Source: Psammoneis japonica
Taxonomy: Eukaryota
Assembly: GCA_008632985.1 (NCBI GenBank)
Contig: QPGO01000025.1
Location: forward strand, 310,001 to 374,000
Direction: 5' to 3'
Length of the DNA stretch: 64,000 nt
A program made the translations under genes and the position numbers. This document shows, one piece after another, positions 1-48,699 of the stretch; within the stretch, counting starts at the first letter, position 1, and the number at the start of each line of letters is the position of its first letter. The notes under the pieces are model-generated. The model saw only the letters and a program-made list of their open reading frames with translations. It was not told the origin of the DNA and did no database searches.

Positions 1-539
1 CTCCGCCGGCGTTGATGCATCTGTCAACTTTGCAAATGTGCCTGCTCTCTCACGCCACACTCCTCTTCTTCTGGCTCCTCTCCAAACTTCTCTGCTTCCA
101 CCTGTTGTTGCTCTGCCCAAGTCTGTGCTGATGAGGACAACTTCCGCTCAGCCTGCTCCAAACTCCAAACTGGCCTCCACACTCCCAGCTGCCGCTGTCA
201 CTCCCAAGTGCCTCCCTGAGACATCCTCAAGCTCTGCCCTCCCCGCTCACACCCTTCCGACACACCCGATGCTCCCTCAACTTGCTCAGCCTCTTCTCTT
301 GACAATGAGCCCATTGAGCTCTCTGCTGGTGCTCTTCTCTCTGCCCTTTCCAACAAGTGCAAACCCGCGCTGATGCTGTCGGAGAGTGTTTGCCAGTTCT
401 CCACCAATCTTTTCAAGTCCTGCACTTTCTGCTCCACCAAAACTCCCACTGGTCATTCTCAACACCCCTGCTTGCCTTTTTTCTGGGAGCTCATCCTTCT
501 TCTCCTTCGCTGCTCTCTGTCCCTCCCTCCCCATCCACT

Positions 540-1063
540 GCGCCAAAATCCATTGAATCGGCAAGCTTTTTGTGACAAACGGCAGTTGACATTTTTGATG
601 GCATGCACATCAAAACCTCCTCTGCTGTAAAATGGCAGAAGCTTCCATTGTGATTCTGGCTGTTTTGAGGAACCCAGACGTCCTTGTCCAACTCAAAAAT
701 TTGCAGCAAAGCCCAAAGTTCGTCCTTTGTTGGCCTTGTCTCCTGTTCCGCTCTGTCGTCGCATTGCAATGCATCAATTGTTGTGTCATGGTTTTTTGGA
801 ATTAGACAACCAGACATTGCTCCTTCTTCATCTAAGTCCAGCAAGGCTGAATCCAGCTCAGCACACATGATTGCCAGACCAAAGCAACGACATGCTTTTG
901 CAAGGTGCTGGATGCCAAGCAAAAGCAGGAATGTGACAGACCACGTTGACAATGAGTCTTCATTGTTTTGCACTGCATTCAGCACACTCTTGCCCATGCC
1001 AAGCTGCATCTGATGACTTTGAAGATGCAAATCCAGACCCTTCCACACCTGCTTTGCACGCAT
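540..1063 (-). pseudogene. Degenerate transposase-like remnant (possibly PIF/Harbinger N-terminal part)
   Basis: Minus-strand ORF 491..1063 reads as protein-like (ELWALLQIFEL...FTAEEVLMCM.SKMST...DFG) inside a TA/CG-depleted block. The family assignment is a weak resemblance only. Confidence 0.25.
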
Positions 1064-2194
1064 GCACTCTTTGACCGCAGAGATGACATGGCGGCCCTTT
1101 TCTTTCGTGGCAAGCTCCGCCCAGAAACTTTGTGCCTCCTCCCTGTGATGGGATTGCGCTGAACCATGCTTGTTTCAATGCATGTGGCGCACCAAGGCAA
1201 TGACACATGCAATGTCTGCAATGCAGCAGACGTCATCCATCATGCACGCTTCGCTCCTTTGGTGGTTGCAAGCAACTCGATTGTTTCTTTGCCATTGCTG
1301 TGTCTTCAAGCCTCTGCACTCCACTTCTTGTTTGCAGAAAGGCTGGCACAAAACCTGCAGAAAAAATCTGGCGTGGGCTCCTTTTCACAAAATGATGGAC
1401 ATGACTGAATGTGAATGACCTTGATGGAATTCCCAGCTCATCTGACAATCGTGTTGTCATCATGGCTGTCATGCTTCTCCGCTCCTGAACAACAGTGGTG
1501 TTGCGTCCTGTGTCACTCATTGCCGCACATTGGAAACCATCTGCCTCAACATGTCATCATCAGAAAGAACACAAATGATGTCATCAGTGTGACATCAGGG
1601 TTCTCACGCCATCAAATGCCACTCCATTGGAGATTTGACACCCAGACCTGTTTTGGTGCATGCCTTCATGTCTGTAGAATGCACTGAAATGTCAATGGTC
1701 CAAATCAAATCATGTTTGACATCTCAAAAGTGTTCCCCCATTTTGGTTCCTTGCCAATCAGAGAAACGAGGTGCGACATGTGTCATTTTAACAAACAAAC
1801 ATGCTTCAATGATCACACCCAAAACTTGCACCTCATCTTCCAAACAAACCATTGGTGCTCACCCCCCCCATGGAACAAGCAGACTCTCTCTGCTTTCCAT
1901 TGATGCATCACATGTGGGGCTGTTGTTTGCACAAAATTTCAAGTTGTCATCAATGTTCAACATCGCGGCAGATGCACATGTGTTGGATGTCAATTCACTG
2001 TGCTGGCGGCATTCGTGCAAATGTTCCACCTGCAATGCAAAGACGCGTGGACGCCTGCCATGATGTCAAATTCAATGACATTGAAACGTTGCTTTTAAAA
2101 TTGCAGAGCCTCACAAACCTTTTTCAAGAAAATGACAGGCATGTGTCTGGTCACCCAGGTGGCTCTGGGTTTATGAAAAAAAGAAGAGGAAAAG

Positions 2195-5065
2195 GAGGAG
2201 GGAGGAGAGGAGAGATGCACATTCTCTGCAGTGCTTGCAATGCATTCAGCATGCATGACGCCCAGATGATTGGTGCTTCCGATGCACCAGTGGCCACCAG
2301 CTGGAGCGCAGTCGCAGCTCTCTGCTCTGCTCTGGCAAACACTGTAAAGAACAGCAACATGCCATTGCCCATCTAAATGCATCACCCACTGCTTCATTGC
2401 TCACGGAAAATTTACACGCCCACTGCCAATGCTGCCGTTGAGATGCAACCGCATGATTGGCCAAAACTCCATCACTTTTGACAGCCGGCTCCACCTCATT
2501 TCATCCATTTCCTCTCTGGACCCATCTGGATGCAGAAAGTTCCAGAAACAGATTTCCCCAAAACAACGAACAGTGTCAGAAGACTTGTGTCATGTGGAAC
2601 ATTGGCCCAGAAAGCCATTGTGTGAGATTTGGCAGTCAAAGATGTGCACACTGGAAAATGACAGGCAAAATGAAAATGTGAGTGGAACAACGCACACAAC
2701 AACAATCCATTGGGACCACACATCACAGTGCACTCATTGGAGCACCTTTTAGAGGGAGAGCTGGGTTGCCTTCCCAATTGCATGCTCCCAACTGCCACCA
2801 GCGGTTTGTGGCATCCTTGCATCCAAGAGGAGGCGATGAGCCCACCAACACAAGCCTCAACCTCCCCATTTTACCCACTGCAAAGCCTGGACCAGTCAGC
2901 ACACTGCCAAGATCTCCCCACACAACATGGACAACCTTGTGTCTCAGATGATGAAGAGAATGATTGACTGCAGAACAGGAAAAAAGGCTCATCACAGACC
3001 AGACACCTGCACGCATGTGAACGAGACGCACAAAAAAAAGGCTCGTGAGGTGTGCAAGTTTCATCAAAACAAGTCCAACACTCAAACAATTAGAGCACAC
3101 TCATGGGATTGCCTTTTTTGGACTGTGACAAGACTGTCTGACAATTGCCAACATTGCAAGTGTCCTCCAGGCTCCATCGCATTGTTTTGTTCCAATGGCA
3201 TGCACTTTCCAAAAATTGCAACGGCCGAAACATGACATGCTGTGATCACATGCTGACCAAGCCCCCAAGAAGGACATCAAGTGCATCACAAATCCATGTT
3301 CACACACACAACAGGTGCACCAAAGGATGCAGAGTGGGGCAAAGCATGAAGATCCCAAATGGATGCGCTTTGGCAGCACCAACGACTTGAAAAACATGCC
3401 AACATCACAGATGTCACAATCGACCACATGAGACGATCAATTGACCTTGCAAGCTGTGACAAAATGCAACAACAATCTTTGGCAAGCATTCAAACGGCAC
3501 AAAATGAGAAAACATAAAAAGAACTTGCCTCGGCGGCATTGTTGACCAGTCAGATGTCACCCGTGTCGCGCCACATTTGAGCTGCGAGTCGAGGCACGCA
3601 ACCGTTCATGGCATGTGCAGCAACCAAAAAGCACCCCAGGAGACCAAACCAATGCATCAACCTCTTTGTGACAATGACAGAAAGAGATCACCCATGAAAA
3701 ATGCGCCTGCCCCACAATGTTTGCCATGCTGAGATGCATCAAAGTGCAACGGCCGTGCATGGCCGGTTTCTTGTGGTGCGGCATGCCAAATCGGGAGCAT
3801 TTGAGTGGAATGAAGAAAATGAAGAGGATTCCCTCTTTTGTGTCATTGCACAACTTGTGCCAGATTGGACTGTTCATTTCTGCTTGTCATCACAGAAATG
3901 GAATTGTGTCATTGTGGGATTCTGCACAAGTTCCAGCACATTTCCCACACAGTTTGTGAAGAGCCACACCTGCACAGCTGGGTGATTGCCTGTTCTGGCA
4001 CATGTCTGGTCATGCAGGTGGCTCCAAGTTTGTGGAAAAAAGAAGAGGCAAATGAGGAGGAGGAGCGAGAGAGGGAGAGATGCATTTGCAGTTTTCAGTG
4101 TGTGTGCAATGCGTTCAATGTGCAATGTGCACGCACGATGCACAGATGGCCAGCGCTTCTGATGCAGTCGCAGCTCTCTGCTCTAGAGAGCAAACACTCT
4201 GTGGAACAGCAACATCCATGATCCATCCAAGTGCATTGTCTGCTGCTTCATTGCTCATGGAAAATTTACATGCCCACTGATGACACCACCGCTGAGATGC
4301 AACCACACGTCAAGCCAAAACTCAATCACTTTTTGCAGAACCGGCTCTGCCTCATTTCATCCATTTCGTCTCTAGACCCAACTGGATGCAGAAAGTTCCA
4401 GCATCTAATTTCCCACATCAACAAAGAACATCAAAAGACTCAAGTCATGGAGAGCATTGGTGTGGAAAGGCAACTGTGAGCCCTTGCAGTCAAAAACATC
4501 CATGCTGAAAAATGACAGGCAAAACGAAAATGTGAGTGGAACCACACACACAACAACCATCCACTGAGGCCATGTGTCACAGCGTGCTCCCTGTGACAGC
4601 TTCCAGAGGCAGCTCTGAGATGCCCCACCCAGTTTTAAGGCCCCATGTGCTGCCAGCAGTTTGTGGCATCCGAGCATCCAAGAGGAGGCAAGGAGGCTGT
4701 CAGGGCAAGCCTCCACCTCTCCATTTTATCCGGTGCAAAGCCTGGTCTTGTGGGCACACTGCCAAGATCTCCCCATGCAATGTGGATAAAATTGTGTCTC
4801 AGACAATGAAGCAAATTGATTGCAGAGCCAGAAGAAAGGCTTGTCATAGACCAGACACCTGCATGCATGAACGAGACACACAAAAAATGGCTTGTGAGGC
4901 ACACGACTTTCATCAAAATGACTCTAAAACTCAATCAATCACAGTGCACTCGTGAGATTGTCTTCTTTGGAGCATGTGAAGTTTGTCTGACAAATGCCAC
5001 TGTCACAAGCATCTCCAAGGCTCCATCACATCATTTTGTTTCCACGGCGTGCACTTTTGAGAAAT
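2195..5065 (+). repeat. Two diverged direct copies (~2195-3240 and ~4065-5065) of a ~1-kb degenerate repeat
   Basis: Shared blocks in the same order, e.g. gcttcattgctca.ggaaaatttaca.gcccactg, ggatgcagaaagttccag, aaaatgacaggcaaaa.gaaaatgtgagtggaac and agaccagacacctgca.gcatg. Confidence 0.75.
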
Positions 5066-6001
5066 TGACATCCTTCTGTGAGACAGTTGGATGGCAGGCA
5101 GACAAAGACAATTTGAGTCCCGAATGGTGGGGAACGAGAGCTGCCAACGCACCCTGCCTCAGGTGCAACCCCAAAAAAAACCAAAAAGCACTGTGCGTGA
5201 ATTGTGCCAGCCTGGACTGATGCAGTTCATTTGAAAGTGTCCACAACTCGGGGCCCCAACAAGAACTTGGGGGCTCCGCCATTTGCTGCCCTCCCGGTGG
5301 AAAACGTTGGCCACCTTTTCTGATTGCCAGCGGAAGAAGAACAGCGGTCATTGTTTGAAACCAAGATGGCAGTGGGCGATCCCACCCACAGGGGGCTGGC
5401 AGATGAGACAGCCACTGAGAAGGCTCTGCTCCGCAGAAGTGATGATGTGGAAGCAGCGGGTGACAGGTCTGGCTGGCGAGACCCACGCCACGCAGGCACA
5501 GACTGGCACAACTGCAATGACTGGCTTTTTTCAAGTGCGCACAATCACCACGCAACAGGAGCCCAAATAAAGTGAAAAATGAACAGAGCCCAATGCATGG
5601 CAAACAAAATGGCACAGTGCCGACTGCTGCCATCATCTTGCTTGGGAGACAATGCTGCAAAAAGCAAAGCATCAACTGCTTTGAATGACAAGATCAGCCG
5701 ACCAGTGACATCATCATTTTGAACATCAAGTCTGACAGGCACTGCATGGAACCAAATGAGAGATTGATCATTGAGGGCAGCATTGGTCATTGAGGGCAGT
5801 TGAAGGAGCTCAACTCCAGCTGGTTGTTCTTGAAGAACTGAGTGACTGCAGAGCACAGTGGAAACAAAGGTCTCTGAAAAGTCTTTCAGTCTTTTTTTTT
5901 AGGAAAGATCAATCCAGCCAGGTCCTCCGAGCAGAGAAAAACTGAAATTGAACTAGCAGTGCAGACTGCCACTGGAAGAACAAATGATCAGACCAGACAG
6001 C

Positions 6002-6203
6002 TGTGATTTGATTGCAGCCATTCTGCTGTTGTAACAATCAAAGGGCTAAGAAAATTGTGTGTTAAAATAGAATGTGAACTTTTAAAGTGCGCAGTTGGTC
6101 TCTTGTCGGAAGCAAGTGCGTCAGCAAAGAATCTGGCTCTTGAATCAAGTTCAAGGACTAGGACAGTTCGCCTGTCTGTCCGTTTGACCCTAGATTCATC
6201 ACA
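6002..6203 (-). repeat. 3' LTR of the Copia element
   Basis: Direct repeat of 11786-11987 with 6 mismatched bases and TG...CA termini. Confidence 0.95.
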
Positions 6204-6236
6204 CTCCCTCTCAAGAGCCAATGCAGCGTTGTTTCC

Positions 6237-9200
6237 TTGCCAACCAAGTGTGAACTTTCGATGCCGAACGAGCAACTCTAGTGACAAAGGCTTGGTCAAG
6301 CAATCTGCAGGCTGAGCCTCGGTGTCAATTTTCACCATCTCAATCTGTCCGCTCTGGACATGTGACCGGAAGTGGTGCAACTTGACATTGAGATGCTTTG
6401 TGCGAGGTCGGCACTTGTGGACTCGCGCCATCTCTGGCACACCGCTGTTGTCCTCGAACACTCTGCAATGGATCTTGGGTTCCGCTCGATCGATCGGAAA
6501 ACCCTCTGCTTTCAATTCTTTCAGCATCTCCATCAAAGGGATCGCCTCTTGCAGGGCATGGCTCAGTCCCGTGTGTTCGCTCTCAGTTGAAGAGAGACAC
6601 ATTTCTCCCTGCAACTGGGATTTCCACGTGACCGGACATCCACCGCACATAATGACACATCCATGTCTGGACCTTGCAGTGTCTGGATTCGAAGTGTCAC
6701 TCTTGTCGAAGTTCCCCGCAAAATCCGCATCCACATAAACCTCGAGTTCCTTGGACTTGGTTGGCCGCATGACAATTCCTTTGTCCCTCGTTCCCATGAG
6801 ATGCCTGCCCAACCACCTGATTGCCTTACCGTGCTCGACTTTTGGAGCTGCTGTGAACCTCGCGCACTGGTGAATTGTGCATGAACAGTCGCTTCGGGTG
6901 CCACGCTCCAAGCAACTCAATTTTCCAATCATGCTCCGGCAGTCGAAGCTGTTGTCAAAGTCTTCTGAGTCTTGGTGTCAACCCAAAATCACGGATGATG
7001 CAGCTGGAGTGTCTTTCGTCTTGGTGTTCTTCTGGAAGTTCAGTTGCTCCAGAATTTGATCCGCTTTCCTGTCAATGTTCACCCCAAGAAAATCTTGAAT
7101 GTCGCCTTCCTCCGTTGTGTTTAGGTCTGCGCTTCGCACATCTTTCACGACTTGATCAAGCTCCTTTTTATCTGGACCAGCAAGCAAAGAATCATCCGTG
7201 TAGAGGACGCACATGCACTTTCCTCGGAAGAAGACGCACTCATCATATTTCGACTGCTTGAAGCCGAGCTTGTTGACAAGTTTGTCCACGAGATAGTCGT
7301 TCCATGCTCGGCCAGCTTGTTTCTGACCGCATGCATTTCGATGGAGTTCGAGCACATAGTCCTCCGAGTTGCCATCTTCTACCTCGAATCCCTTGGGAAT
7401 TTTCATGCAGATCTCTTGCTCGACTGGGGCCTGCAGAAACGCCAGCACGTAATCGAGTTGCTTGGTGTGCCAATTGTTCATGGCCGAGAGAATTGGCAGC
7501 ATTCGGATCGAGCTCCACGAGGCCACAGGTGCACATGTCCTGTCCGGATCGTAGTGAATTGACTTTTTCATCCTTGACCCGTCGATGTTGAGCCTCGCCT
7601 TGTACTTTTTGACTTTTCTCGTCTTGATGTCGCGTTTCCGCTTCATTTGCCACACTGCAGGCAATGCTGTGGCATCCTTGGGGATCTCGGAAATGTGTCT
7701 CACCGAGAAGTTTCGGTTCCCGATCTGATCTTGGAATTCTTTTTCCATCGCCTTGACGAACTCCTTCGCATCTTTTTCCTTCATCGCTTCGTGGTGGTGC
7801 ATGGCATCTGGGTCCGCCGTCGACTTGCAGGCATGCAAGGGATCTTCTTCGGACAATTCTTGTTGAGGACAGAGAGATTCGAATCCGAAGATCTCTCCCT
7901 CCATCTCTCCAGTGCATTCTTCAGCTCTCGCTGGCGACTCGGCGGCATGTCTTGGGTTCGGTCTACTGACACGTCCCGATCTGGTCGTCACCAGAGGCAC
8001 GTCGCGTTGCGCTGCGTCTCGTTGTTGTGCTGGAGCTTCCACGTTAGTAGCGCGCTGTGGGTCTGCCTCCTGAGCACTGGTTGGGAGGTTGCTGTCCTCC
8101 CTCTGAGTTGGCGATTCGTTCTCGCCTTGTGTTCCATTCAAGCTCGACCCATCAGGCTCTTGGTCTGTTGGTCGGCTGTCGTCGGCACTCAACCACATGG
8201 GTTGTTCCCTAGAGGATTTTCGTTTTCTCCTCTTCTTGTGGCTCTTCTTGTTCGTGAGCCTCACGCTGTTTTCGCGTTTTCTGTTGTTGGGGGTCTCGGA
8301 TGCTCCGTCAGCCTGGCCATCGGCTGGTGGATCTTCAAAGCCTGCTTTGACCTTCCATCCGATCTTCCAGCGCTCTTGTTGCGCCATGTGAAAACTCGGG
8401 TCGAATCTTACATGGAATTGTGGGCTCACTCGTCCTGTTTCGATGTCGAGGACAAGTGCTGCATTTTGGCAGTGCACTGGCGATTGGCCAAGGTAAATTC
8501 CCACGTTGGACCTTTGCTTCCACTTGTTGAAAATGTTTCCCGTCTGAAGTGCTTCTTCTAGCACCGCCACAGGACACCCAAAAGGGTGACAGTGTTTTGA
8601 GTTTACATCCACTGCGGATGAAGTGAACAGCTGGCATGCGCTTCGGCTCGCTGGATCTTTCGGTGGTGGCGTCTCGTTCAGCGCTTGATTTGCCATTCGC
8701 AATGCGTGCGGCCAGAGGTGAGGCGAGATGGCTTGTGGCCACCTCTTGTTCGCGTGAATCAATTGCGTTCTCGCCAGGTCTTGCAGATCTCGCATTTTCT
8801 TCTCTGCAATTCCATTTTGATGATGCGCATTCACTCCGGCAAAGGCAAGTCCCTGCCTTTGTTCTCGAACTGCGTTCACCCATGCCTTCGCCTTGAAAAC
8901 ACCGTTGTCGGCATGACAGTGTCGGATTTTGATTCCACTTTCTTCTGCATGCTGCTCAAATGCTCTCTTCCCTCTCAACGTCTCTTCAGCAGAGCTCGTT
9001 TGCTGGAGGTGTGCGCATCCGCAGCCTGTGGCTTGGTCAACGCACACAGTCGCGTGGTTGTAGCGGTTTTTGGTGAGTGTCCCCGTGTTCTGTGCTGCTG
9101 GTCCAGGTGTGCTCGAGACCAGCATGTCGACTGACACGACTTGTCCCGGTCTCGTAGGTGCAATTTTGTTCCTGCTCTTTTCGGTCCTTGGTCTCCATGG

Positions 9201-10110
9201 GCGCTTTGTTTGCTTCCCACAAAGGCATGCCGAGCAGACTGGGACTGGGCACTTGGCCAGCGTGGGATCGATGAGCCTCATTTTCGCCATCTGTTGCAGG
9301 CGCTTGAATGACATGTGACTGAATTTGTGATGCAGCTTCAGCAGTTTGGTGGTTTTTGTTTCTTCACCTCCATCTTGTCTGTCTTCCTCATCTGGAACAA
9401 CTGCCACCGGACTGTCTTCATCCTTCTCCCCTTGCAGATCAAATTCGGTCTGCCGTGGGGCGGCCCAGTCGATGGGTTGGGCCGCGGTGTCCAATGAGTG
9501 TAGACCTGCTTTTTGAAGGTGGGATTCTGAGAGCGTTTCGTCGTCAGCCTCGTCATCGCCAACAAGGTGAGCTTCAGAATCGTGTGCAATTGTAGGATCG
9601 TCCTCGTCGTTCGCTGAAATTTTTGCCTCTTGACAGAAAGCATCACATTTGGAGCAGCCGGGAGCCAGGGCGAACGTGGCGACGTTTGATTTCGTTTTGT
9701 CGATCGGTGTGGTTAGCTTGTGCGAATGTTGGCTCCAATGCAAAACCGTTGCGCAATGGTTGGTGGTCTCCCCTGTCCCGCCAACTGCGTCTTTTTGAGA
9801 TTGCGCCCAGTGTTGTGGACTGGGCAGTCGCGCATCCTCGTCCGTGGGTGCGTAGAACGAGTTGGGGATGCGAAACTTGTGTCGTTTTCCAGTGTCGTCT
9901 GACCAGTTCCATGCGATTGTGCCAATCATAACTCCTTTCGTTCGTGTTCCTCCGAAACCCTTGATGCAGCGATTCGATTGTCACAACGGGCCTTCGAAAT
10001 CTTCGATGAACGAAGAAATGCATCCGGAACAGTGATTGTCAACGCCGACCGGGCCTCCATCAGTGTCGAAAACGACGTCATTCGTGCATGCTGGGCAGGT
10101 CTGAGCTTTG
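6237..10110 (-). pseudogene. Copia pol: protease-like region, integrase, RT and RNase H, frameshifted
   Basis: Motifs: VFDTDGGPVGVDNHCSGCIS (protease region), HHKFSH...CPVPVCSAC (GAG-pre-integrase), VSVD/HADNG/QNGIAE (DDE integrase), KARLNIDG, GQKQAGR and YTDD (RT), YVDADFAG, LSSTESE, FEDN and ADCLTKPL (RNase H). ORFs 6978..9929 and 5988..6932. Confidence 0.93.
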
Positions 10111-10478
10111 AATGCCAAAGCCGTGCACGCGGTCCACACATTGCGAATGCCTCGTGCCAAGTTCCATCGAGTGCACTTACGGCGTCGACACTTCACGATT
10201 GCTCCCTCTAGGGAGCGAATCCGTGCTCGCATGGCTTGTGCCTCTTTCCCGTTCGGGCTGCTCTCCCCCGTCCACATGGGATTGATGAGTTTTCAGCGCT
10301 GTTGGGATCGATCTCGGCATTCATGACGACTCTTGTTCCCAGATTTTCATCGGTTCATCGGATTGGGCCGGATTGGTGAAAGGCAGGCTAGAATGTACAG
10401 CAATGGCGACCAGATCGTCTTGTGGGACTTGTGGGCTGCTCCTGTCAATCGCCTCCTCCACGTGGGTGACGTTGACAG

Positions 10479-11740
10479 TCATTCCGCATCCGAAGATGAA
10501 TCGTCTCCGCCGTTCTTGATCGCTTCCATAGCTTGTGAAATGCGGACGGTGTTCTTCGTCGTGCCGCGCTGCTCGTTGTCTTCTTCATCCCTCTTGGGAA
10601 TGAATCCGAGACCTTTGCAATCCTTGGGATGGTGAATTCGCCACTTTCCACCACATTTTCCTCCAGTGATCTTGTCACACCAATGGCGCGGCTTGCCTTT
10701 CCACATGACGGGGATCTTTTCTTTACCCTTCGCCGGTGGTTTGGCAGGACCCTTCTCCCTGCGACACCTTTTCGAGGGCTCGCGTCGTTTCTTCTTGTGA
10801 GCCTTTTTCTTTTTCTCAAGGCTCGCAATCTTGGCTGACAGAGCAATGATCTGCTCCTCTTGAGGATCGGGAGCATTCCATTCTCCATTTTCCTTCATCA
10901 TCTTGAAGCGCTCGTTTGCCACATTCATGATGTCTTCAGGAGTCATGTCTTGTCCCTCATCATGCTGCTCCTTCTTCCTGCCAATGCAGTCAACGAACTT
11001 CTTGTCCGATGCGTTGGCATGTCCCTTGAAGAGGTTTGCCAACAAGTCTTCTGCAGTCTCCCCTCGCGCGGCAAGCGCCTTCGTCATCATGAGTGCATGC
11101 TGATTGAATTTTGTGATGTCCGAGTTGATCGTGTGAACACACTTGTCCAGTGATGACAACTTGGATCTGATGCTGGACGTTTTCGCATTCGAATCGAGAT
11201 GGCTCTCGCGAATGATGACCTTGAGGAGCAGACACGCAGATGGACGTTTCTGTTGGATGGGATCTCCTTCCCTTGGCTGGAGCATGTGCTCCTTCTTGTG
11301 CATCAAGATCTTGTTTGGTGCCTGGGTGTCGAGACTCGCCATCAGACACGAACAGAACATGTGATTGTCCTGTGTCGCACGTCCTTCTTCGAAGAGGCAA
11401 GCTCTCTCGTGTTGCTCAATTTGTTCCACAGTGAGCTGTCCGCAGTTGTCCACCAGATGAGCACGATCACTGTCTTGCTCTTCGGGGTTCAAGTCGACCA
11501 GCAGAATGGACAATTCATGCTCATCGTTGTTCCATCCGCAATCGCCCGCACGTTCATCAATTGCCTCCAGAAACGAGAACAAACTCTCTGGCGTGCAATC
11601 GAACAACTTTTCACTGAGTTTGTACGTCGCTCTTTCGTAGAGCTTCCTTCCGGATGTTCTCCAACAGTCGATTGCGCCGGTCATGGCGCCTGCTGGCGTG
11701 AATGCAAATGGGACATCCTCTCCAGCAGCTGATGCGCTGC
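10479..11740 (-). CDS. Copia gag
   Basis: ORF 10479..11825 lies directly downstream of the 5' LTR and has a C-terminal WCDKITGGKCGGKWRIHHPKDC zinc-knuckle-like motif. The true start is uncertain. Confidence 0.8.
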
Positions 11741-11785
11741 TGTCAGAATCCGCCGTGGTGCAATCAGCTTGTCGCAGAGGAAGCG

Positions 11786-11987
11786 TGTGATTTGATTGTA
11801 GCTGTTCTGCTGTTGTAACAATCAAAGGGCTAAGAAAATTGTGTGTTAAAATAGAATGTGAACTTTTAAAGTGCGCAGTTGGTCTCTTGTCGGAAGTAAG
11901 TGCGTCAGTAAAGAATCTAGCTCTTGAATCAAGTTCAAGGACTAGGACAGTTCGCCTGTCTGTCCGTTTGACCCTAGATTCATCACA
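11786..11987 (-). repeat. 5' LTR of the Copia element
   Basis: Direct repeat of 6002-6203, located upstream of gag. Confidence 0.95.
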
Positions 11988-12389
11988 GACAGTCTAGCTA
12001 GCAGCGCCTGAAGAAGCATTGCGGGGAATGCACTTCGAACCCGAACTGTGCAACATGCGAGTATTTTAGCTTAGAGACTAAATAGAGAAACAGCCGGAAT
12101 CTGTATTAAAAGCTTCGGGTGATCTCACCTTTTTGCACGACGAATGACGGGTTGCCGACTGCTGCTTCGTGTCGACATTATTTGCCTTCGGATCGCTAAT
12201 CTTCGACATAACGCATTTTCAACACAACGCCCTGAAAGACGGTACGTTCTCTGGTCTCTGTTTGAACCGACCAAACAAGTGTGCAATAAGAAAGCCGTTC
12301 ACCAGCCTCCCAGTTGTTGTTCAGTCAGTCTTATTGTTTGGAAAGACAACATAGCAGTGAGAGCCGCTTAAAGGAAGCAGATTGATAAC

Positions 12390-13166: not shown

Positions 13167-13725
13167 CGATTGGAATGAAGGTGTTATAATTCATGAAAGC
13201 AAGAATTTGTTTTGCGAGAGCTGAATCGTTGGTGGCTCGTCGCTTTGTTGTAGAGGTGCGTTTATTACTGTACATAAAATAATATTTAGAAGTGTCCATG
13301 GTTGTCTTTCTACTGTTTAGTTTTGACTTTACCTCCTACTGGCATAGAATTAGTTGTTTTTATGGAGCGCTGTTTTCGCTGACTGAAGAAAAGCAAATCA
13401 TCGATACAGCATTGAAATCCAGATTTGCGCGCAGTGCGATGAAACTTAATGTTCATGGCCTGGCTGGTGCAGCAGTGTCGCTAGAAGCTTGTCATCCACT
13501 TCTACCAACACTAGCTAGCTAGTTAGTAACCCCATCTAATGGGGAGGCATGTTGAGTGTGTGAGACGATGTAGCATTCATTTTTCGTTTGAAAATTCTTT
13601 TTAACCTTTCCACACGCACACTTTTTAGTTTCTGTGAAAAAGAGTTCGACATGCCGCAGCAGCACCATTGACTTTTCACCGTCATTGTTCCATGTTGCTG
13701 CTTTTTGGTTCTGTTTTCCAATTTA

Positions 13726-18435: not shown

Positions 18436-21400
18436 CTACGAATTGCTATCGTCTGTTGTTGATACTTGCGACTTTCGTACCCCAACATAGATTTGAATCT
18501 GGGCTCGCTCCCAAGCTTGTGATTCTTCATTTGTCATTTGCTCAATGTCCTTTTCGCCAATGCTGGAAAGTGACATTGGTTTCCCTTGCACCGAAACCAT
18601 GGTTTGATGAAAGTATCGATTGATCCGTCACTGGATGGATTTCCGTACTGCTCCCATGTCAAGGGACAACCCCACAAGACTTTCCAATCAAAGGCATTTG
18701 CCAATTCTTGAAAGAATAATCTTTCCAGATCAGGCTTTCTCCACCGAACAGACAAAATGACTCGGCCTCGTGTTGGGTGTGAATGCCGTTGAATCGTGGT
18801 AATCAAGCTCGGCATTGAAGAAATGTCGCACAAGAGATCTGAACCGACTGTCAAATCAAAAGGCTCTTGTAGTGCAGTGGCAGTGTCTTCTCCCCACTCC
18901 AAAACTTGCGTGTCAACTGTGACATTTGCTGGAATCAAATGCTTGTTTTGCGGTGCATTGCATTCCAGCAGAGAAAGAGCCGGCACACAATCCGTCAACA
19001 CCACGGTTGCGGGTTCTTCTCGTGCCAATGTGATTGCTGCACAAAGACCGACAAGTCCCAGCCCAGATCCAAGCTCCAAACCACGTTTCGATGAAGCATG
19101 AGGACGATGTTCGTCGAGATACCGAACGAGTTCCAGACCTGCTGGCCATGCCATGGCAAAAGTACCGTCGCAGTTGCCTTCATCCTGTGTGCTACCGGCA
19201 GATCGGCCCTGCGGAGATTCTTTGCTGTCATGAGCAGTTAATTCAGTATGAAGATGAATTTCTTTCCTTGACTCGTCTAGAGACACAATTTTTATTGTGT
19301 TGCTCTCGTCAGCGTTGTCTTCTGCATCCCCTTCAATTCAACTCAATTCTTAAAAATTACACAGCCAAGTGCGGCTGCTGCCTGGGGCTTGAATGCGCCT
19401 GAGAGTCCTTTCAATCCACAACTGTGGACAGGTTCAGAACGTCAATGCAAAACAAAACACATGCAGCACCGCATTTGTAGTTGTGGGCGGTGATCGGCAA
19501 CCTGGCTCCATGCAGCCCAGACAGTTGTCGATGGTGACACAGAAGCGTGTCGTTGTTTTCGCACCCGGACTGCTTCGATCCAGTTGCGCTTGAAATCCGT
19601 GGTTTCTGCCTGGACTTCCTCCATGGATTGGGTGAACCACCTTGTGAGGTGGGGAGAGGTTTTGGGTGAGTTTGAGTGGGGAGGCGAATTCCTCCTCAAT
19701 CTTGTCATCCAGGAAGCTGTTGATTCTGAGTTGTGTTTCCGAGTTGTCCCGAGCAGCAGCACGCATGCGTTGTCGCCACACATCCCAAGAAATGTCCCAC
19801 AGCTGTTGTATTGCTCCCGACAGCCAGCGGAGTCCGGTGTTCTTTCTATCCAAAAAGTCGTAATGCGCCTGTTGTGCTGCGGCCCAGTCTTCGGCCATGA
19901 AGCCGCGAGAGAGAGCTTGACCGCCGAGAGCATCCTGGGCGAACAATGCCGCACCCACGAGTTCATTGTCTGAGAGCCTTGGTCCTTGTGGCAATCCATC
20001 ATGCCACTCTCGAAGAAGTTGCAGAATTCCTCGCTTGATGTCGGGTTGCGTGTGATGTTTGTTGAGCCAGTCTTCGAGGTCGCCCAGTCGATGTTCCCAC
20101 AGCTCAAGCGCTTCGTACGATTTGCAGCGGAGCACGTGGTCAATTCCCTTCTCCGGTTCTCCGCAGCGTGGGCATGCATTGCTTTCGATGCGTCCCCACT
20201 CGTGCAATGTGTGGTTCGTTCTCACATGGTCGGCAGACCATTTCGGCTGCCACAGACGACGGAAAGTGGGGCACCGTTGCATCGCTTTACCCAGAGCCTT
20301 CCAGTCAATCGTGGCATGTCCTGGCTCAGTGCCAAGTTTCTTCTCCCAGTGCCGCTCTGCTGGTGGGCCGCAGATGTGATCCGTGATGATGGTTTTGTCC
20401 CACGTTGTAAGAAGCTTGCCATTTAGCTTTACGCTCCAAATTTTTTGTTCTGTCTGGAATGGAGCTGGGTCGTCATTGGACTTCAGAGCCTCCCAGCACG
20501 CCTTTGCGAGAAGGTCCATTTCTGCGTTGAGAACCTCCAGGCAGCCAAGTTCGCCAAGAGGCACATGTCGGTCTTTGTGCCCTGCAATCTCAGCCGGGAC
20601 AACAGCAACAGGAATTTGTTGGATCATTTGTCGAATTGGGTGGATGAGGTCGTAGTTGGTTTGTTTCGGGTCATCGTAGCTGTTGTAAAAACATGCAGTG
20701 ATCGCCAAGTCGCAATCGCAACCCAGCACAATTTTGCCTTGCGTGATGTTGTGTGCTTGACACATTTGGAGAATTCGTTCAAGCAGCCCGTAGATCCCCC
20801 CCAGTTCGCTTCGACAAGCTGCAAGATCGCTGATGTTGCCTGGTGTTTGGTTGACCCCTCGGCAGCGCAAGGAGTGTCCTTCTTCCGGCACTAAAATCAT
20901 GGCTGCTGTGGCGAGATCATCTTTGTAGGACCCGTCCGCAACGCTGATGGCTGTGCCTTGACGCATCCCCATTGTGAGCGCATCGTCTGGTGGTTGGAGG
21001 CTGCAGTGAATGAATGCCCACGAGTCTGGTGTCTTGTCTTCTGCAATGATGTCGTAGTCGGCAGTGCCAGCAGGTAGAACCTTGCCCCCCACACGTTGAA
21101 TCTGAGTTGGTTTGACGTCTTCAGGAAGTTCGGCAGCACAGCTTGTGAAGTGGCACAGCGGTTGTCGTTTCCTTCTGCTGTGTGGCACTCTTGAGTGGAC
21201 TTCAATGCCTTCTTCGCCTGTGCAGCACACCCTGTCGTCGTACTCCGAGAAGCTCCAAGAAGATGCCGGTTTTGAATCCATTTCCCAAGGCGTCTGCGCA
21301 GTTTCAGATGTTGGTTTCTTCCGACTGCTAAATGGCTCGATGCCAGCGCCTCTTGCCATGCGTTCCAGCATGTTTTGGAGGGACACCCGGCACGTGGCCA

Positions 21401-24400
21401 TTTGCAGTGTGTTTGGCATTGTGCTTCTCCGTTCCAGCAAGCCGGGAGGATTCTAGTTCCGTCGCCAGAGGTGATGTCTGAGATGGTGGTGGCTTGAATC
21501 CACATCCTGCAGATGTTCAGTTTCCTGAGTTTTTCGCCTCTGTAGCCGTGACTTGCAAAGATGCTCACAAGGAACGTATCTCCTACACGGTGTGGTGCAA
21601 GTGACGTTGTGGGTGAGAGCAGTTCGATGTCGCACCTGCAGCAAAATTCCCACGACGATTTTATCCAGGACTTTGTGGCTGGCAGCCCGAGTTGCTTGAA
21701 GTTCTGCAGAAAGAGCTGGCCATTCTGTCCGAGTTCCAGCAGCGTAAGTTCGTAGATGAGTTGCATTTCCTTGCCCGTCATTGATGGAGAGTCCATCTGC
21801 TGAAGGAATGCTTCTGGCTTCGCCAACCCTTGTTCTGCACCAGTTCGGGGATTCCCAACCCGTTGAACTTCGGCGGTGCGTGGAGAACATCCTTCGGAAA
21901 CGTTCGTGGGCAGCCCAAAGCTGGTGGAGCGACGTTGAAAAGTGCAGTTTCAACTTGTGAGCATTCCTTCTTGGTCAGGGATGTGGCTGCTGGTGGATGT
22001 TCGATTCCTTTCACAATGCCACCTCGCAAAGACAACCACGACTCCGTTCTGTTGAGGTGCCCACTTCGAATCTGATCTGCCCATTTGTTCACTTTGTCGG
22101 ACAGTGCTCGGACCTGAGCCTCTGAATTGCCATCCAATGCTGACCACACACCTGGGGTCTCCCTTGCCTCTGTTGCTTCGAGCCTCTTGACAGTGACCCG
22201 CTTCCCTTCGTGGTCAAGTGGTGACACATCCCCTGGTGTTTCTGCTGTCGTTTGGCATCTCCATCTGTCTCTTTCCCACGCGAACGAGGCAAGGGACCAG
22301 AAGCTTTTCTCTGGGACTAGCGCGCCGCCTGTTGCACGAATGCCTCCTTCCCAACAGTCTGTCACATCTTGCATTCCCGTGACAATCGTTTCGCAGGTGG
22401 CGTTCCCATCAGTGGACGTGCAAGGAAGATCTGTGTCATCTGCGAAAGTGCAGCAGACACAATGGAAGGTCTCTCTTGTAACCGGTGTTGTCGCGCGGAT
22501 GCCGAAACCCTCTTTTCGCAGCATTTCAATAACCTGGCTGCTTGCCAAGAGCCAGATACCTGGTGCTGCCCCATGACCTTGAAATGTTCCTTGGAACGGG
22601 ATTTCGAGAGCTGCGTGAGGGGCCTCTGAGTCTCCGCATGCTGTTCTGATGCAGTGCTGTGCTTGTTGGAGGGTGCTGAGCATCACAAAGGTTTCGTCCT
22701 CGCCTGCGCCATGTTTCCTCATGCAGATAGAGGCAATGGCATGTAAGATCCTGTTGCAGCACGATTTGGCGTCGGTGCTGTTGATTGCTCCGGGGATGTG
22801 GAGCATGCGCATCATGTCGTTTGTTGGGACCTTGTTGAGAGCGCAGTGGATTGCTCTGTGCCGTTTCCTGCTGCCATGTGCTTCCCAAGGAACAGCCTTG
22901 TAAGTTTCAGCGTGGTTGATCAGATTGCGCATGTGGCATTTGTTGACCTGATTGTACATTGCGTCGAAGAGGACGACAATTCTTAGCTTCTTCACATGTG
23001 AGGAGTCACTTTTCTTTGGGATCATCACATCCACTGCTTTAGTCCAGCATTTGGGTGCGCAACCGTGCTTAGCTGGGATGGCCGCCATGCAAGAATCGAG
23101 TTCCGACACGATTTCGTCTTGTGTTCCCGCTTTGTAATCTGCAAAGGAGGGGCCAAATGGACTGCTTGACGTGTGTGCCCGCATTTTCCTCCATCCGTTC
23201 ACATGCTCCTTCGTGCTGTAGTCCAGTTCCAAAGGTGGAATGCGGTCGTCGACTTGTTTCAGTTGTGCAATGAACTTCGCGTGCAGTCGTCGACGCCTGG
23301 TGGAATCTTGTACGTGCCGTCAAGGACCTGTTTTGCTGCTCTTGTGTCGGACAGGCATCCGAAGTCACGCACCAAAGGTTTCTGCACAAATGGAACGTTC
23401 GATCCTTCGGTGAATGTTTGACTGAACCTTTCAGTGCCTTCTCGTCCACACACTCGCTCCATGCCATTCTCAGTGGAGAAGTCCTTTTCCTTGCCGTCGC
23501 GTCCTGTTGCTTGAACTGTTTGCAGGGCCAACCGTGCCTTCCCTGTGACCTGTTTGATTCGTCTGAACGCTTTGGTTTGCCGGCAGCTGTGGCGGATAAG
23601 TTTCTCCTCGTGCTCTGCAGTTGTGTCATTTTCTTCAGCTCTCTTTGCGCACCGTGTTTTGAATTCATCCTGTCGGAGTTTGGCGGCGTCCTTTTTTAGC
23701 CTGCAGTGCCTTTTCATCGCTTGTTTGTGTTCCTGTTGAATGTGGTTCGAGGCAACAGACAGAGCATCCATGCGTCCTGTGTGTTTCATGCGGCGGTGCA
23801 TCGTTGACATGCTAACACGGCGCCACTGTCGGAGCTTGTAAATTGGGCGCCACAGGTGGATTTCCTTTCTGGCTTTGTTGATTTTGTCGGAGGATTCCAC
23901 CTCGTTCATGCACAGTTTGCGGCACTTGGTTTTGGACTTTTGGCGCAGTTTATGATTCCTCTCGAAAAGTTCTTCGTAGTCTTGTTGGAGAGCCGGTGGG
24001 AAGTCCTCGGAGTTCTCAAGTTCAATCGCTCGACGCAGCATGCCATCCTGACGGATCTGAGTTGCTGTTGGTTTGTTGCATTTTTCAATTGCTTTTGGCT
24101 CTTTCAGTTGGCCAGCCAGTCTGTCGGGGTTGATGTCGGACAGCTTCGGTGGAGTGCATCCCAGTGCGCTTGACTTGATGATGTCAATCCAGATGATCCG
24201 GTGGTCCGAGGTGCAGTCGAAATCGCCAAAACCTGACATTCCTGCTTTGCTGATTTCCAGTGAAGGTGAGATGAGAACCGTGTCAATTTGAATTTCTGAA
24301 TGGTTTTTGTCGCAAGCAGCCACTGGTTCGAGTGTCGGGTGTGCCATTTCGAGTGCGTCGATCAGGTTTAAAGAGCGCATCCATGATCTAAAAGGGGCCG

Positions 24401-27400
24401 AGTGAACGTTTTCGTTGAAGTCTCCTCCCAGGACAATCAGGTCTCCCTCCGTCTGCCACTTCTTGATTTCCTTGCCGAGGTCCGAGAGTGGCGCGTCTCG
24501 TGGGCACCGATCGTCGCCTGTTGATCTGAGAAATGTCTCTTGTTGGGAGCAGACTCTTCCTGGATTTCCTCCTTTGTCTGGTGCGGGGGGCGGCAGGTCG
24601 AGATGAACCTTGTGTAGATGCCTGTTTTGCCTCGTAACTTGATCCACGTCCAGCGGCCTAGTCCTGCAGGGTCTGTTCCTTTGGCAATCAGGTGATGGTT
24701 GACATTGCGAGTCAGGAGCTGTCCGACGCCTCCACATTGTCTTTTGTTCTCCGTGGAGCAGTGTTCGTTGGTGGCTGACATGGAGCTTCCGCCTTTCAGA
24801 TTCCTCCATCTGTCTTTCCACTGTTCATGTTTTGGCAATCTGGAGAAGTTGAGGTTTACTTCGCTGATCCCCATGTGATCGGCTGGTTGTCAGAGATCCA
24901 GTCAAGAATGCCCTTGTGTTTGTCTGTCCCACTGAGGTCAACCGGAAGGCAACCCACGTTGTGGAATGCAACTCGGATGTTGTTTTTCTTTTTCAGCAAC
25001 GCGGAGTCCCCCACCTCTCATTGGTTTGTCGACTTGGTGTTCCTTGTTTAACGTCCTCCTTGGGCAGGCGTCGATGGGCCTGCCGAGGACGACACAGACT
25101 GTTCGTGTCGTCCAGCCTCCGTGGCCAAGAGACTGGTTGCTGATTGTGCACCACCTTCGTCGTTAAGGTGGTGTGCCACATCGTTTTCGTTGCGTTCTTT
25201 CTCAAGCTGCTGGCGCAACTCCTCCACTTCGATTGGGAGTTTGTCGTTGACTTCAACAGATTTCTGAAGCTTTGCTCGAGTTGATTCGGTGGTCTCAATG
25301 GACGCGTCGTCCTTCTCACACTCGTGCAATTCTTCCAGGTTCTCGTTGTCGAAGAGAACTGTCTTGTTGGCTTTAGAGTGCTGAGCATCGTCGCTTTTGT
25401 CTCGAAGCATTCCTGTCGATCCAATGTCATCGGCTTGTGCGAGGCGTTCTGCTGCCTCTTTTGCTGGTGAAGGTGCCTTTTTGGATGGTGAGGCCGGCAG
25501 TTTCTTGGGCGACTTGGATTTAGATGTGCTCCTTTTTTCTTTGGCATTCAATCCGCCCTTTGCTTTCTTTTGCGCTTGCCAATCGTCCTCCATGCCCCAA
25601 GGGTCGTCTTCGACAATTTCTTTGATCTTGTTGCTCTGGGCAGAGGTGGTGTTCCTGCACCGGGTTGCAGACGGTGTTTTCGTAGACCGAGATGCCGAGC
25701 GAGGTGAACCAGAAGGCTGCGTCCGGTCCGAAGTGATGAAGGACCTCGGGAATGAGGTTGTTGATGGTGCTCATCGCTTTCTTAAAGTTCTTCTTAGGGA
25801 AGGTGATGACGCACTCATTTTCCCTGTTCCACTTGTGGTCGACATGATGAAACAATGGAGTCATCTTGGGGATGTTTGATGTGGGGTCTTGAACGCGTTT
25901 CCTCATTGAGAATGCTCGCAGGGTCGTTGGAGGGTTCCTGGATTTCCGGATCACATCGAGATTGGCAATGAAATTGAAGTCCGTTTGGCTCAATGCGTTG
26001 TTGCAGAAGCAGTGTTGGCGCTGTGCAAGTTCATCGACAAACTCGCGGATGTCATCCGGAGCGTTTTGCATGGTTGGCGAGGAGCAGCAGGGGACGCAGC
26101 GGAGTTGTAGACCAAGAATGCGTTTGGGTGCTCCGACCCGCCACAACTTTTGGCTGCCACTTTGACTTGGTGGGCCAGTTGACGTCAACGACAAGGTGAA
26201 GGGCCTCGGGGTTCTTCTTTGGATCTTTCTTGTCGAAGGTGGGGCGGCGTCCGGTTGGCAGTGCGACAGATCGCCATTGAAGTCCGAGGCAGTCGCGCTT
26301 GAACTCGAGGCCGAGGTGCTTCCGAATGGTGCAGTGCAATGTTTTTTCGCTCATTGTCTTGGTGCTCACACATGGCCATCCAACATTCCGATGGGTGGAC
26401 TGACATGGAAGTGGGTTGCGACCAACATTGAATTGTCCTTCTTCGATGTCTTCGAAGGCGCCAAGAAGCCTTTCTCCGCACTTCCTTTCAGCTGCGGTGT
26501 CGCAATCAATTTCTCCGTCGTTGGGGTCTCGCACCGCAATAAAACGGATTTGAGCGTAGGTTTTGTGCTCTTGATTGGCTTGTGGTGCGAGGCAGTCGAC
26601 ACCAATGAAGGAGCTGATGGTTTCTCTGTCTTGTGCTTTGCCTTCCGGCAATCATCGCCGTCTCTCCAGGCACCAAAGGCATCCTCGAGTTCTGGATCCC
26701 ATGTGCCGATCATCACTTTGTCGCCAAGGACGTCTCTGACAATGTCGACTGCTTTGCGGATTACAGTGGAGATTGTTTTGAGGGGTTTTTTGGAAGGTGG
26801 GATGGCAATGAATGCGTTGCATCGAATGTCTGTGCAATGAAATCCGCTTTGCATGTTTTCATCCGGGGCTTCTTCGTCTTCCTCCACATCTTCCATTGAT
26901 TGATCTTCTTTGGCGGCTTCAGATTCAGTGCCGAAAAGATTTTTTGTGGTGTCGTCGAAATTGTCGTCGTCTTCATCGGAGTTGTCAACATGGTTTCTGC
27001 TCGTGAGACCGAGGTTGTCCGTCATGTCCTTCGGTTTTGTCGTTTCTCCTTGCAGCTCTGGGTCGGGATGGTCCGGGAGGAATCTGCTCTGATCTTCCTC
27101 TTCGATTGGTTCTTGCATGTGGTCGCTTTCATTAATGATTTCGTCATTTGGGGTAATCTTGTTGTCTGCCTCGAGAAGTCCTTGGCTTCTTGTGTTAGGA
27201 CGACCGTCGGCATTTTTTGGAGTCGCGCAAGGGGGTTCTTTCTTACGCGAGTTTTGTGTAGAGTTTGTACTGGACAGTGGCGGGCATTGGCTGGAATGGT
27301 CATCGTCCGTTTCTTTGAGGTTGTCAATGGAATTCGTTGCCGCCACTTGACCATCTTGTCCTTTGCCTTGTTTCTTTTTCATGCCTTTCCTTGGTGAAGT

Positions 27401-27678
27401 GTTGCTCTTCACCGCAGAGTTGTTTCTTTTCTTAGGTGCCATGGTGCTATTTTTTTAGCTTGTATGCATGCGCGTTTGTTCGTGTTGTCTTCCGCATCCC
27501 CTTGTTGATCGACACCAACTTGAATTTCTAAAACATCGTTGGGGACAGATCCTTCCGGCAAAGTCAACTCGAGTTCCTGTCCATTCACAGTAAATGTCAA
27601 TACATCTCCAGGTGAGGCGTTTTCCGGCACGACGATGGAAATGGCGCTGCTGCTTTGTGTTGCTGTCATGAGGCTCAT
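18436..27678 (-). pseudogene. METTL21/Methyltransf_16-like SAM-dependent methyltransferase gene split by a LINE (5' part 27484-27678, 3' part 18436-19313)
   Basis: Motifs AWPAG, LELGSGLGLVGL, VVLTD, LEWG and GSDLL. Removing the LINE and one TSD copy joins ...DQQGDAEDN|ADESNTIKIVSLDESRK in frame. A 1-bp frameshift near 18622 separates a plausible C-terminus (...IQIYVG...; TAG at 18436-18438). Confidence 0.85.
19334..27483 (-). mobile_element. Full-length ~8.15-kb non-LTR retrotransposon with ORF1 and APE-RT-RNase H-CCHC ORF2 (Ambal-like), multiply frameshifted
   Basis: ORF1 ATG at 27442, ~40 nt from the 5' end. APE motifs RVAFHNVG, GISEVNLN, GGDFNE and SDHR. RT motifs KLRIVVLFDA, DAKSCCNRI, QGTFQGHGAAP and FADD. 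RNase H motifs VADGSYK, RSELGG and GHKD. CPRCG...HVLRC finger. 20-bp TSD at 19314-19333 and 27484-27503, with a short TTGAR-repeat 3' tail. Confidence 0.9.
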
Positions 27679-48506: not shown

Positions 48507-48699
48507 CATGCCTCATTTGCTTTGCAATGAGTGCAGCTAGAAGGCACTGATGTGTGGGACACCCTTGGCACATTTGAGGCAAGCTCTGGATGTCGCGGCT
48601 CACAGCTGTTGTGTTTTGGAGTTTCCCATGGACACCGTTGGTCCAGCACTTCTTTGTTCCGCTTGTTTCTTGGTTGCACACAGGTTCTTCCCTGCAAAG

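Follow-up and report, generated by a model that had tools for sequence, protein, structure and literature searches.

Why do the two long terminal repeats (LTRs) of one retrotransposon differ from each other only at sites of the TA type? The question is raised by a Ty1/copia element, here called the Copia element, in the diatom Psammoneis japonica. It lies in a stretch of 64,000 nucleotides that we analysed as a whole and call the window (NCBI GenBank assembly GCA_008632985.1, contig QPGO01000025.1, positions 310,001 to 374,000 of the forward strand; coordinates below count from the first letter of the stretch). The answer we reach, with considerable confidence, is that the element is young and polymorphic and that its LTRs differ through hypermutation of mobile DNA in place, from A:T to G:C, at TpA only.

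The LTRs, at 6002-6203 and 11786-11987, are the sole long direct repeat within 5000-13000. A gap-free comparison, position by position, over their 202 nt gives 97.0% identity. They differ at six positions: 6015 C/11799 T, 6019-6020 CA/11803-11804 TG, 6113 C/11897 T, 6125 C/11909 T and 6135 G/11919 A. These are exactly the differences named in the original prediction, which held that all of them fall at TA-type sites. That too is borne out. All six are transitions, and all are of the TA versus CA/TG type: the right copy has TA where the left copy has CA (6015, 6113 and 6125) or TG (6135), and in one doublet CA in the left copy (6019-6020) stands opposite TG in the right (11803-11804). Seven TpAs are common to both LTRs, and the five CpGs (LTR offsets 88, 105, 117, 167 and 179) are identical between them. 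The doublet had been read as two hits either on one TA or on a CG. Two hits on one TA is the best reading, as doublets in the coding part sit at implied TA and none at CG; a double hit on one of six CpGs that left the others untouched is, by our estimate, at least about 20 times less likely.

The element lies on the minus strand, which corrects the earlier account. The TA-losing copy, 6002-6203, is therefore the biological 3' LTR, and the TA-keeping copy, 11786-11987, is the 5' LTR. The parts of the element are as follows.

5996..6000, no strand: target-site duplication GACAG, left copy (read from the sequence)
6002..6203, minus strand: biological 3' LTR, TG...CA, with five TA losses if TA is ancestral, at 6015, 6019, 6113, 6125 and 6135 (LTR comparison)
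6204..6212, minus strand: polypurine tract abutting the 3' LTR on its upstream side, minus-strand sequence GAGAGGGAG (read from the sequence)
6204..11785, minus strand: internal region, a single frame with gag, integrase, reverse transcriptase (RT) and RNase H; rho(TpA) 0.13, rho(CpG) 0.90
6978..6980, minus strand: in-frame TGA stop (homologue alignment, sister contig)
7035..7697, minus strand: RVT_2 reverse transcriptase, residues 762-982 of the open reading frame (ORF) 6981-9980 (Pfam, E = 3.7e-38)
9210..9344, minus strand: GAG-pre-integrase, residues 213-257, upstream of the RT (27.4 bits, just below the cut-off of 28.4)
9981..10481, minus strand: four more in-frame TGA stops, at 9981-9983, 10293-10295, 10347-10349 and 10479-10481
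11786..11987, minus strand: biological 5' LTR, 11 TpA kept and one inferred loss, 11803-11804 TG (LTR comparison)
11988..11992, no strand: target-site duplication GACAG, right copy

Between the left GACAG and the LTR stands one extra base, C at 6001; its counterpart ahead of the other LTR is G. The minus-strand frame from 11993 to 5988 runs through gag, integrase, RT and RNase H without a frameshift and has five internal stops. Direct LTRs of the form TGTG...CACA, a 5-bp target-site duplication and an integrase upstream of an RVT_2 RT in one ORF place the element in Ty1/copia, and its homologues carry PF13976 and PF07727. The closest database proteins are about 50% identical to the polyprotein; those with names come from Cylindrotheca and Fragilaria, both diatoms. 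Scanned for Rfam families and for tRNAs, the window gave no match.

How specific are the changes? Comparison of the window with itself revealed a second LTR pair, 367 nt long and 98.1% identical, belonging to a degenerate gypsy-like remnant.

43951..44317, plus strand: left LTR of the second element; of the seven differences, three show TG in this copy and TA in its partner
48140..48506, plus strand: right LTR of the second element; the remaining four of the seven show TG or CA in this copy and TA in its partner

Here all seven differences are again transitions, six TA/TG and one TA/CA (chance 1.6e-4); 21 CpGs are intact and 22 TpAs are common to both LTRs. In the Copia pair, 24% of LTR positions are able to give a TA versus CA/TG pair by transition, and the probability that all five events fall there is 8e-4. 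For both pairs jointly the chance is 1.3e-7. Over these two pairs, on which the LTR spectrum rests, 13 of 13 differing positions set TA against CA or TG, none of the 26 shared CpGs is changed, and none of 974 position-copies outside TA is changed. That all 13 are transitions has P of about 0.005, assuming that two thirds of changes are transitions. As a lower bound, the LTRs took 0.12-0.25 hits per TA site-copy, and fewer than 0.005-0.008 at their other sites. The changes are specific to their site. Methylation and deamination of CpG, considered as a cause of the LTR differences, is ruled out by the 26 unchanged CpGs.

In which direction did the changes run? A hit at TpA turns a TAY codon into TGY (Cys) or CAY (His), so the fate of conserved tyrosines polarises the process. 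We aligned the read-through Copia polyprotein with 30 homologues and took the 32 columns with Tyr in at least 70% of them. At these columns the Copia element has Cys 14 times, His 8, Phe 2 and Ala 1, and has kept Tyr at only 7. With each homologue used as target in turn, 0-2 changes of Tyr to Cys/His were found in each, 16 of 918 cells in total (Fisher p = 5e-27). Change in the opposite direction, from a conserved His or Cys to Tyr, was found in 0 of 39 columns. The other replacements include Val to Ala (6), Leu to Pro (4), Ile to Met (3) and Ile to Thr (2), because GTA, CTA and ATA codons are hit at TpA. A DNA-level version of the test (tblastn) against 80 metagenomic Copia relatives gave 21 of 31 Tyr-to-Cys/His in the Copia element. 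Among the relatives only two contigs, L070 (6/14) and L079 (4/12), show a comparable share, and other organisms may run the same TpA process; L074 and L010 have low TpA yet intact tyrosines. L070, from a microbial-mat metagenome, has rho(TpA) 0.17 and CpG 0.98.

The same test applies to another retroelement in the window, for which the homologues were trimmed before alignment.

19434..27454, minus strand: LINE-like (long interspersed nuclear element) element with endonuclease and RT ORFs; rho(TpA) 0.17, rho(CpG) 0.83

At seven conserved Tyr columns the LINE has Cys 3 times, His 3 and another residue once, and it has kept no Tyr; 30 controls have 0-1 changes each. Pooled over the two elements, Tyr to Cys occurs 17 times and Tyr to His 11 times (p = 0.34). 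Both strands are hit, with no significant bias between them.

Sister copies of the element supply a second view of direction. These are assembled contigs of one public run (X1), perhaps of the same sample as the window assembly, and the run contains 69% of the sequence words of 4001-14000. Against 5500-12500 its contigs differ at 113 places (A>G 25, C>T 26, G>A 31, T>C 30 and A>T 1), 112 of which are transitions. Forty of the 113 places were listed, and none of these falls in an LTR. They amount to 30 events: 10 CA/TG doublets, 10 cases of CA/TG in the window and CG in the sister, one of the reverse, three of CA in the window and TA in the sister, one of TA in the window and TG in the sister, and five others. 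Most of the 10 doublets, seven of them clearly, lie where the homologues imply an ATA, TAY or GTA codon or a T|A codon junction, and none lies where they imply CG. Two of these are ATG/ACA doublets at Ile/Val columns, in addition to the following five.

Window CAT, sister TGT: Tyr in 27 of 30 homologues
Window TGC, sister CAC: Tyr in 29 of 30
Window ATG, sister ACA: Ile in 25 of 30
Window GTG, sister GCA: Val in 30 of 30
Window GGT-GTT, sister GGC-ATT: Gly in 30, Ile in 28

One sister retains TAC where the window has TGC. CA in one copy and TG in another at the same implied TA means that separate copies were hit independently. The direction proposed in the original prediction, from ancestral TA to CA or TG, is thus supported by outgroup proteins, by sister copies and by old repeats free of TA.

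The same run shows how young the insertion is. One contig represents the empty site: it joins 5993 to 11986 over a single GACAG, and seven of its letters can be assigned to either side. Its depth is 66, against 58 for the right flank, and the insertion is therefore polymorphic in the X1 sample, either heterozygous or segregating. A loose contig end behind 11987 with a different flank marks another insertion of the Copia family. Contigs of the run cover both flanks, with 1 other letter in 481 on the TA-poor left and 1 in 515 on the right. Two further runs, X2 and X3, give next to no cover of the Copia element.

How far does the loss of TpA extend? We mapped dinucleotide rho in 500-nt bins across the window. 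The Copia element inserted at the right edge of the first of two large purged blocks.

1..6001, no strand: old repeat block purged of TA; TpA count 0-5 in 500 nt, rho(TpA) 0.00-0.16, CpA/TpG 1.3-2.3, CpG 0.14-0.50
48507..64000, no strand: repeat block purged of TA; most bins at rho(TpA) 0.00-0.10, with CpG mostly 0.00-0.26

Taken together, 1-6000, about 14000-17000 and 48507-64000 have rho(TpA) of 0.00-0.27, mostly 0.00-0.10, with CpA and TpG at 1.3-2.3 and CpG mostly at 0.00-0.5. Nearly every bin of transposon-derived DNA falls at 0.00-0.27; the exceptions are bins at block edges and the bin with the TA-retaining 5' LTR. The gene island at 27.5-40 kb has 0.28-1.0, about 0.4-1.0 in most bins. 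The borders are abrupt. Where the second element ends, at 48506/48507, the count of TpA per 500 nt goes from 35 to 2. Strong depletion is restricted to repeats. The pattern recurs in other repeats of the window. Those at 54.2-55.5 kb differ by transitions only (13/13, 16/16 and 30/30 in a doubled self-comparison), and the most frequent class of difference is the CA/TG doublet; the old pair 2138-3218/3997-5067, 74% identical, has 31 CA/TG doublets.

CpG decay is a second, slower process beside the loss of TpA. Young elements have CpG at 0.8-0.9 while TpA is at 0.13-0.17, and only old blocks are depleted of both. The claim that CpGs are untouched accordingly stands for the LTRs and fails inside the Copia element, where 11 of the 30 listed sister events set CpG against CpA/TpG. 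One of its stops has this origin. At 6978-6980 a sister reads CGA and the homologues have Arg (28/30) or Lys (2/30), so that the stop is a CpG-to-TpG change private to the window copy. All five in-frame stops of the element are TGA, with no TAA or TAG. The TpA process cannot create a stop: TAG becomes TGG or CAG, and TAA becomes TGA or CAA. Since TAG and half of TAA are erased and TGA survives, dead elements and TA-free junk keep long open frames.

Do neighbouring bases matter? Conserved Tyr codons were lost in 13 of 13 cases after A or G and in 9 of 16 after C or T (p = 0.008). A survival index over tetranucleotides, which is crude, was taken in the old repeats. It is 0.08-0.48 where neither strand has A followed by a pyrimidine, 0.01-0.08 where one strand does and 0.00 where both do. 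The preferred target is A in T-A-Y, which can be read equally as T in R-T-A. U33-A34 of the tRNA anticodon loop resembles this preference. Sites favourable on both strands number 0 of 12 TpA in the Copia LTR and 14 of 29 in the LTR of the second element. The numbers point to a Copia family already stripped of its most vulnerable sites when this copy inserted, and to a second element that has hardly been exposed to the process.

What kind of mechanism could produce all this? In the process we propose, T would change to C on one strand, or A to G on the other, within TpA, yielding CpA or TpG. Both strands would be open to attack, each copy would mutate independently, and the activity would stop sharply at the borders of transposon DNA. 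TpA would be lost much faster than CpG decays, and repeats almost without TpA would be the end state. Proteins would be inactivated on the way through Tyr to Cys/His, Ile to Met/Thr, Val to Ala and Leu to Pro. A sequence-specific enzyme would be responsible, either an adenine deaminase of the ADAT2 type or a thymine-directed alternative. Site specificity, direction, confinement to repeats and independence of the copies are shown by the data above; that the hits in the Copia LTR pair postdate integration, and that silenced or foreign DNA is the target of an enzyme of the host, we infer. Hits on both strands, independent sisters, hits in both LTRs of the second element and saturated junk without LTRs favour mutation of resident DNA. 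Post-insertion origin, as opposed to reverse transcription, was part of the original prediction; it is likely, though unproven for the Copia pair itself.

As to the class of enzyme, a DNA adenine deaminase that reads T before A is our tentative choice, somewhat short of an even call. An in-place process whose primary lesion lies on thymine, for instance oxidation of the TET/JBP type with a product that pairs with G and so turns T into C, would leave the same sites. TpA is palindromic and the attacked base of the pair cannot be told from the other; the context rule fits either base. Yet a deaminase reading U before A has precedent in the tRNA-editing ADAT/TadA enzymes. In the available part of their preprint on the chlorarachniophyte Bigelowiella natans (Mettrop et al., bioRxiv 10.64898/2026.01.13.699255), the authors also name an ADAT2 homologue as candidate. 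We regard the thymine lesion as unlikely, but as the most serious of the alternatives.

Several observations weigh against hypermutation of resident DNA as the source of the LTR differences. The direction of change was read from the coding part and from other elements, and not from the six Copia LTR positions themselves: no other copy of the element was found within the window, and a degenerate pattern of its LTR, searched in metagenome contigs, had no match. The X1 contigs stem from one sample, possibly the window's own source, and so are not an independent population sample. The second element is hardly TA-depleted (rho(TpA) 0.63-0.78); Pfam finds only a trace of RNase H in it, and gypsy homologues align in short pieces, with too few conserved Tyr columns to fix the polarity of its LTR differences. 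The flanking-base rule shows no enrichment among the LTR hits (Fisher p = 1.0). The internal region of the Copia element is far more depleted than its LTRs (0.13 versus 0.42 and 0.61), so that either part of the loss predates insertion or the rate is uneven along the element. In principle, late editing during reverse transcription could also make LTRs differ.

This last point can be made into a full alternative, in which an RNA or cDNA deaminase, by the logic of ADAR or APOBEC, edits the retrotransposition intermediate and the LTRs already differ at integration. The deeper loss in the internal region is what it would lead one to expect. On HIV cDNA, APOBEC3G leaves a gradient in which the LTR is single-stranded for the shortest time, and the depletion pattern of the Copia element resembles it. 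Five of the six inferred hits also lie in the biological 3' LTR. The original prediction had likewise assigned four unambiguous hits to the LTR facing the repeat block and retained TA to the one facing the gene island; the positions are confirmed, but the 5:1 split gives no significant support to an effect of the side facing purged DNA (p = 0.22). Editing of an intermediate should yield one type of change, whereas Tyr went to Cys 17 times and to His 11 times, and the second element has three hits in one LTR and four in the other. Unclassified old repeats and flanking DNA at rho 0.00-0.10 require continued mutation in place. In B. natans, moreover, the available part of the preprint has mutations arising in integrated DNA during vegetative growth (10.64898/2026.01.13.699255). 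Editing of the intermediate is accordingly improbable.

Could the pattern be an artefact of sequencing or assembly, with a modified base at TpA read wrongly in long reads and carried into the consensus? Nanopore reads are known to be miscalled systematically where motifs are modified. Contigs of the public run, however, reproduce the flanks, and copies there differ in the same way. If a palindromic site were miscalled equally on both strands, TA and CG calls should appear too, and both are depleted; a metagenome contig, L070 (perhaps also L079), bears the same Tyr-to-Cys/His trace. We think an artefact very improbable. The idea that the DNA is from a dinoflagellate, with hydroxymethyluracil for thymine, was dropped: a spliced-leader motif had 0 matches, and gene and transposon hits are to diatoms.

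Repeat-induced point mutation (RIP) raises TpA/ApT and lowers (CpA+TpG)/(ApC+GpT). A RIP-like deamination of cytosine, CpA/TpG to TpA as in ascomycete fungi, would match the unpolarised C/T and G/A differences at CpA/TpA and TpG/TpA sites and the AT-rich, stop-filled second element, but it is scarcely credible and is rejected for the Copia element, the LINE and the old repeats, where polarity is opposite (in the Copia element Tyr to Cys/His 22/32, His/Cys to Tyr 0/39), both indices point the wrong way (TpA/ApT 0.02-0.19 and (CpA+TpG)/(ApC+GpT) 1.4-2.25 in the repeats) and the in-frame stops of the Copia element are all TGA.

Some further observations concern the surroundings. The second element (43951-48506) holds only fragments of RT and RNase H, has 41% G+C and has many stops in all frames; the active-site region of its RT can no longer be recognised, although the LTRs are rich in TA and 98% identical to each other. 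Its rho(TpA) is 0.35-0.54 in the 5' half and 0.77-0.94 in the 3' half. Its left-copy hits are the first three sites and its right-copy hits the last four, which has a chance of 1 in 35 by our own count and is suggestive only. At 54197-55520, inverted and direct repeats are nested around the sole N of the window (54554), among them a near-palindrome of 432 nt; CpG there is still at 0.8-0.9, with TpA at 0.04-0.27. An unpurged repeat lies at 40100-41600: degenerate tandem repeats rich in G+C (60%), with several open frames and rho(TpA) of 0.96-1.39. Many long stop-free frames occur in the TA-free old repeats (1-6000, 13672-16082 and 48507-64000), and a gene caller would probably annotate them as proteins. 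Two of them, 13672-14523 and 15072-16082, have 0-0.3% Tyr and 5-7% each of Cys and His.

Among host genes, a hydrolase at 31899-33194 has its nearest named matches in Chaetoceros dichaeta and Ditylum. An ORF for a METTL21-like lysine methyltransferase (18537-19337, minus strand) adjoins the 3' end of the LINE. It has 15 TpA per kb, against 21-40 in the other gene ORFs of the window, and 0.7% Tyr, and it has Cys in place of the Tyr of the D-x-x-Y motif conserved in METTL21B/D. Hypermutation may have leaked into a neighbouring host gene here, or the ORF may be a captured gene copy.

What would follow if TpA hypermutation of mobile DNA is indeed at work here? It would not be confined to one chlorarachniophyte: this would be a second, independent example, from another major algal lineage. 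Retrotransposons, and not viral inserts alone, would be its targets, and the process could be tested in diatoms, for which genetic tools exist. In such genomes LTR divergence is useless for dating insertions, as an insertion with 3% divergence is still polymorphic. Dead elements and TA-free junk with TGA as the sole stop invite mis-annotation as genes. A simple diagnostic can be carried to other genomes: conserved Tyr turned to Cys/His, together with CA/TG doublets between copies. That distant SAR (stramenopile, alveolate and rhizarian) lineages, a diatom and a chlorarachniophyte, share a host defence that is the mirror image of RIP, by a TpA-aimed adenine deaminase or an equivalent, seems to us plausible and only just short of evenly balanced. 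Such a defence would act on silenced mobile DNA, prefer A in T-A-pyrimidine, run to saturation and disable transposon proteins at their Tyr, Ile, Val and Leu codons with frames left open, and it may occasionally damage neighbouring host genes.

How does this process compare with known systems? A literature search found no paper that joins TpA, TpG, CpA and diatom, and the diatom transposon papers it returned lack the relevant terms; apart from the B. natans preprint, the listed results concern fungal RIP or animal APOBEC/ADAR. The element itself resembles the CoDi Ty1/copia elements of diatoms (Maumus et al. 2009, PMC2806351, as far as its available text goes) in its short LTRs, single gag-pol frame and integrase before RT. 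Its protein reaches only about 50% identity with any database entry. In the available text of that paper (PMC2806351) the terms dinucleotide, hypermutation and RIP are all absent.

The diatom process is like APOBEC3 and ADAR of animals in that context-dependent transitions of the deaminase type cripple retroelements. ADAR and ADAT prefer U ahead of the A that they edit; for ADAR this is stated in the available text of the B. natans preprint (10.64898/2026.01.13.699255). Those enzymes mark one strand of RNA or cDNA, however, whereas here both strands are marked and resident DNA keeps mutating. RIP of ascomycetes is alike in being confined to repeated or mobile DNA, in its dinucleotide specificity, in making transitions only, on both strands and with sharp borders, and in possible leakage into neighbouring genes. 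It differs in base and direction: RIP turns CpA into TpA, raises AT content and creates TAA and TAG stops, while the diatom process removes stops and frames stay open.

The closest counterpart is the process described once, in 2026, in another lineage, and what we report is its retrotransposon-side, diatom-side equivalent. The available part of the B. natans preprint (10.64898/2026.01.13.699255) describes TpA hypermutation of integrated viral DNA, measured in mutation-accumulation lines, at a per-generation rate about 1000 times the genome background and with activity limited to some of the lines. TpA-poor coding sequences are enriched there in RT and DDE domains, and the authors propose an ADAT2-type adenine deaminase, noting that ADAR favours U before the edited A. 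In both systems the changes are almost only A to G or T to C, occur only at TpA, yield TpG or CpA by strand and are confined to foreign DNA. The targets in the chlorarachniophyte are giant-virus and virophage inserts; in the diatom they are an LTR retrotransposon, a LINE and old repeats. To the part of the preprint available, whose supplements may hold flanking-base data, the diatom adds polarisation by conserved Tyr, discordant CA/TG products in sister copies and a flanking-base preference. Depletion also runs deeper in the diatom repeats (rho 0.00-0.10) than in the B. natans region of nucleocytoplasmic large DNA virus (NCLDV) origin, for which the same text gives 0.45.

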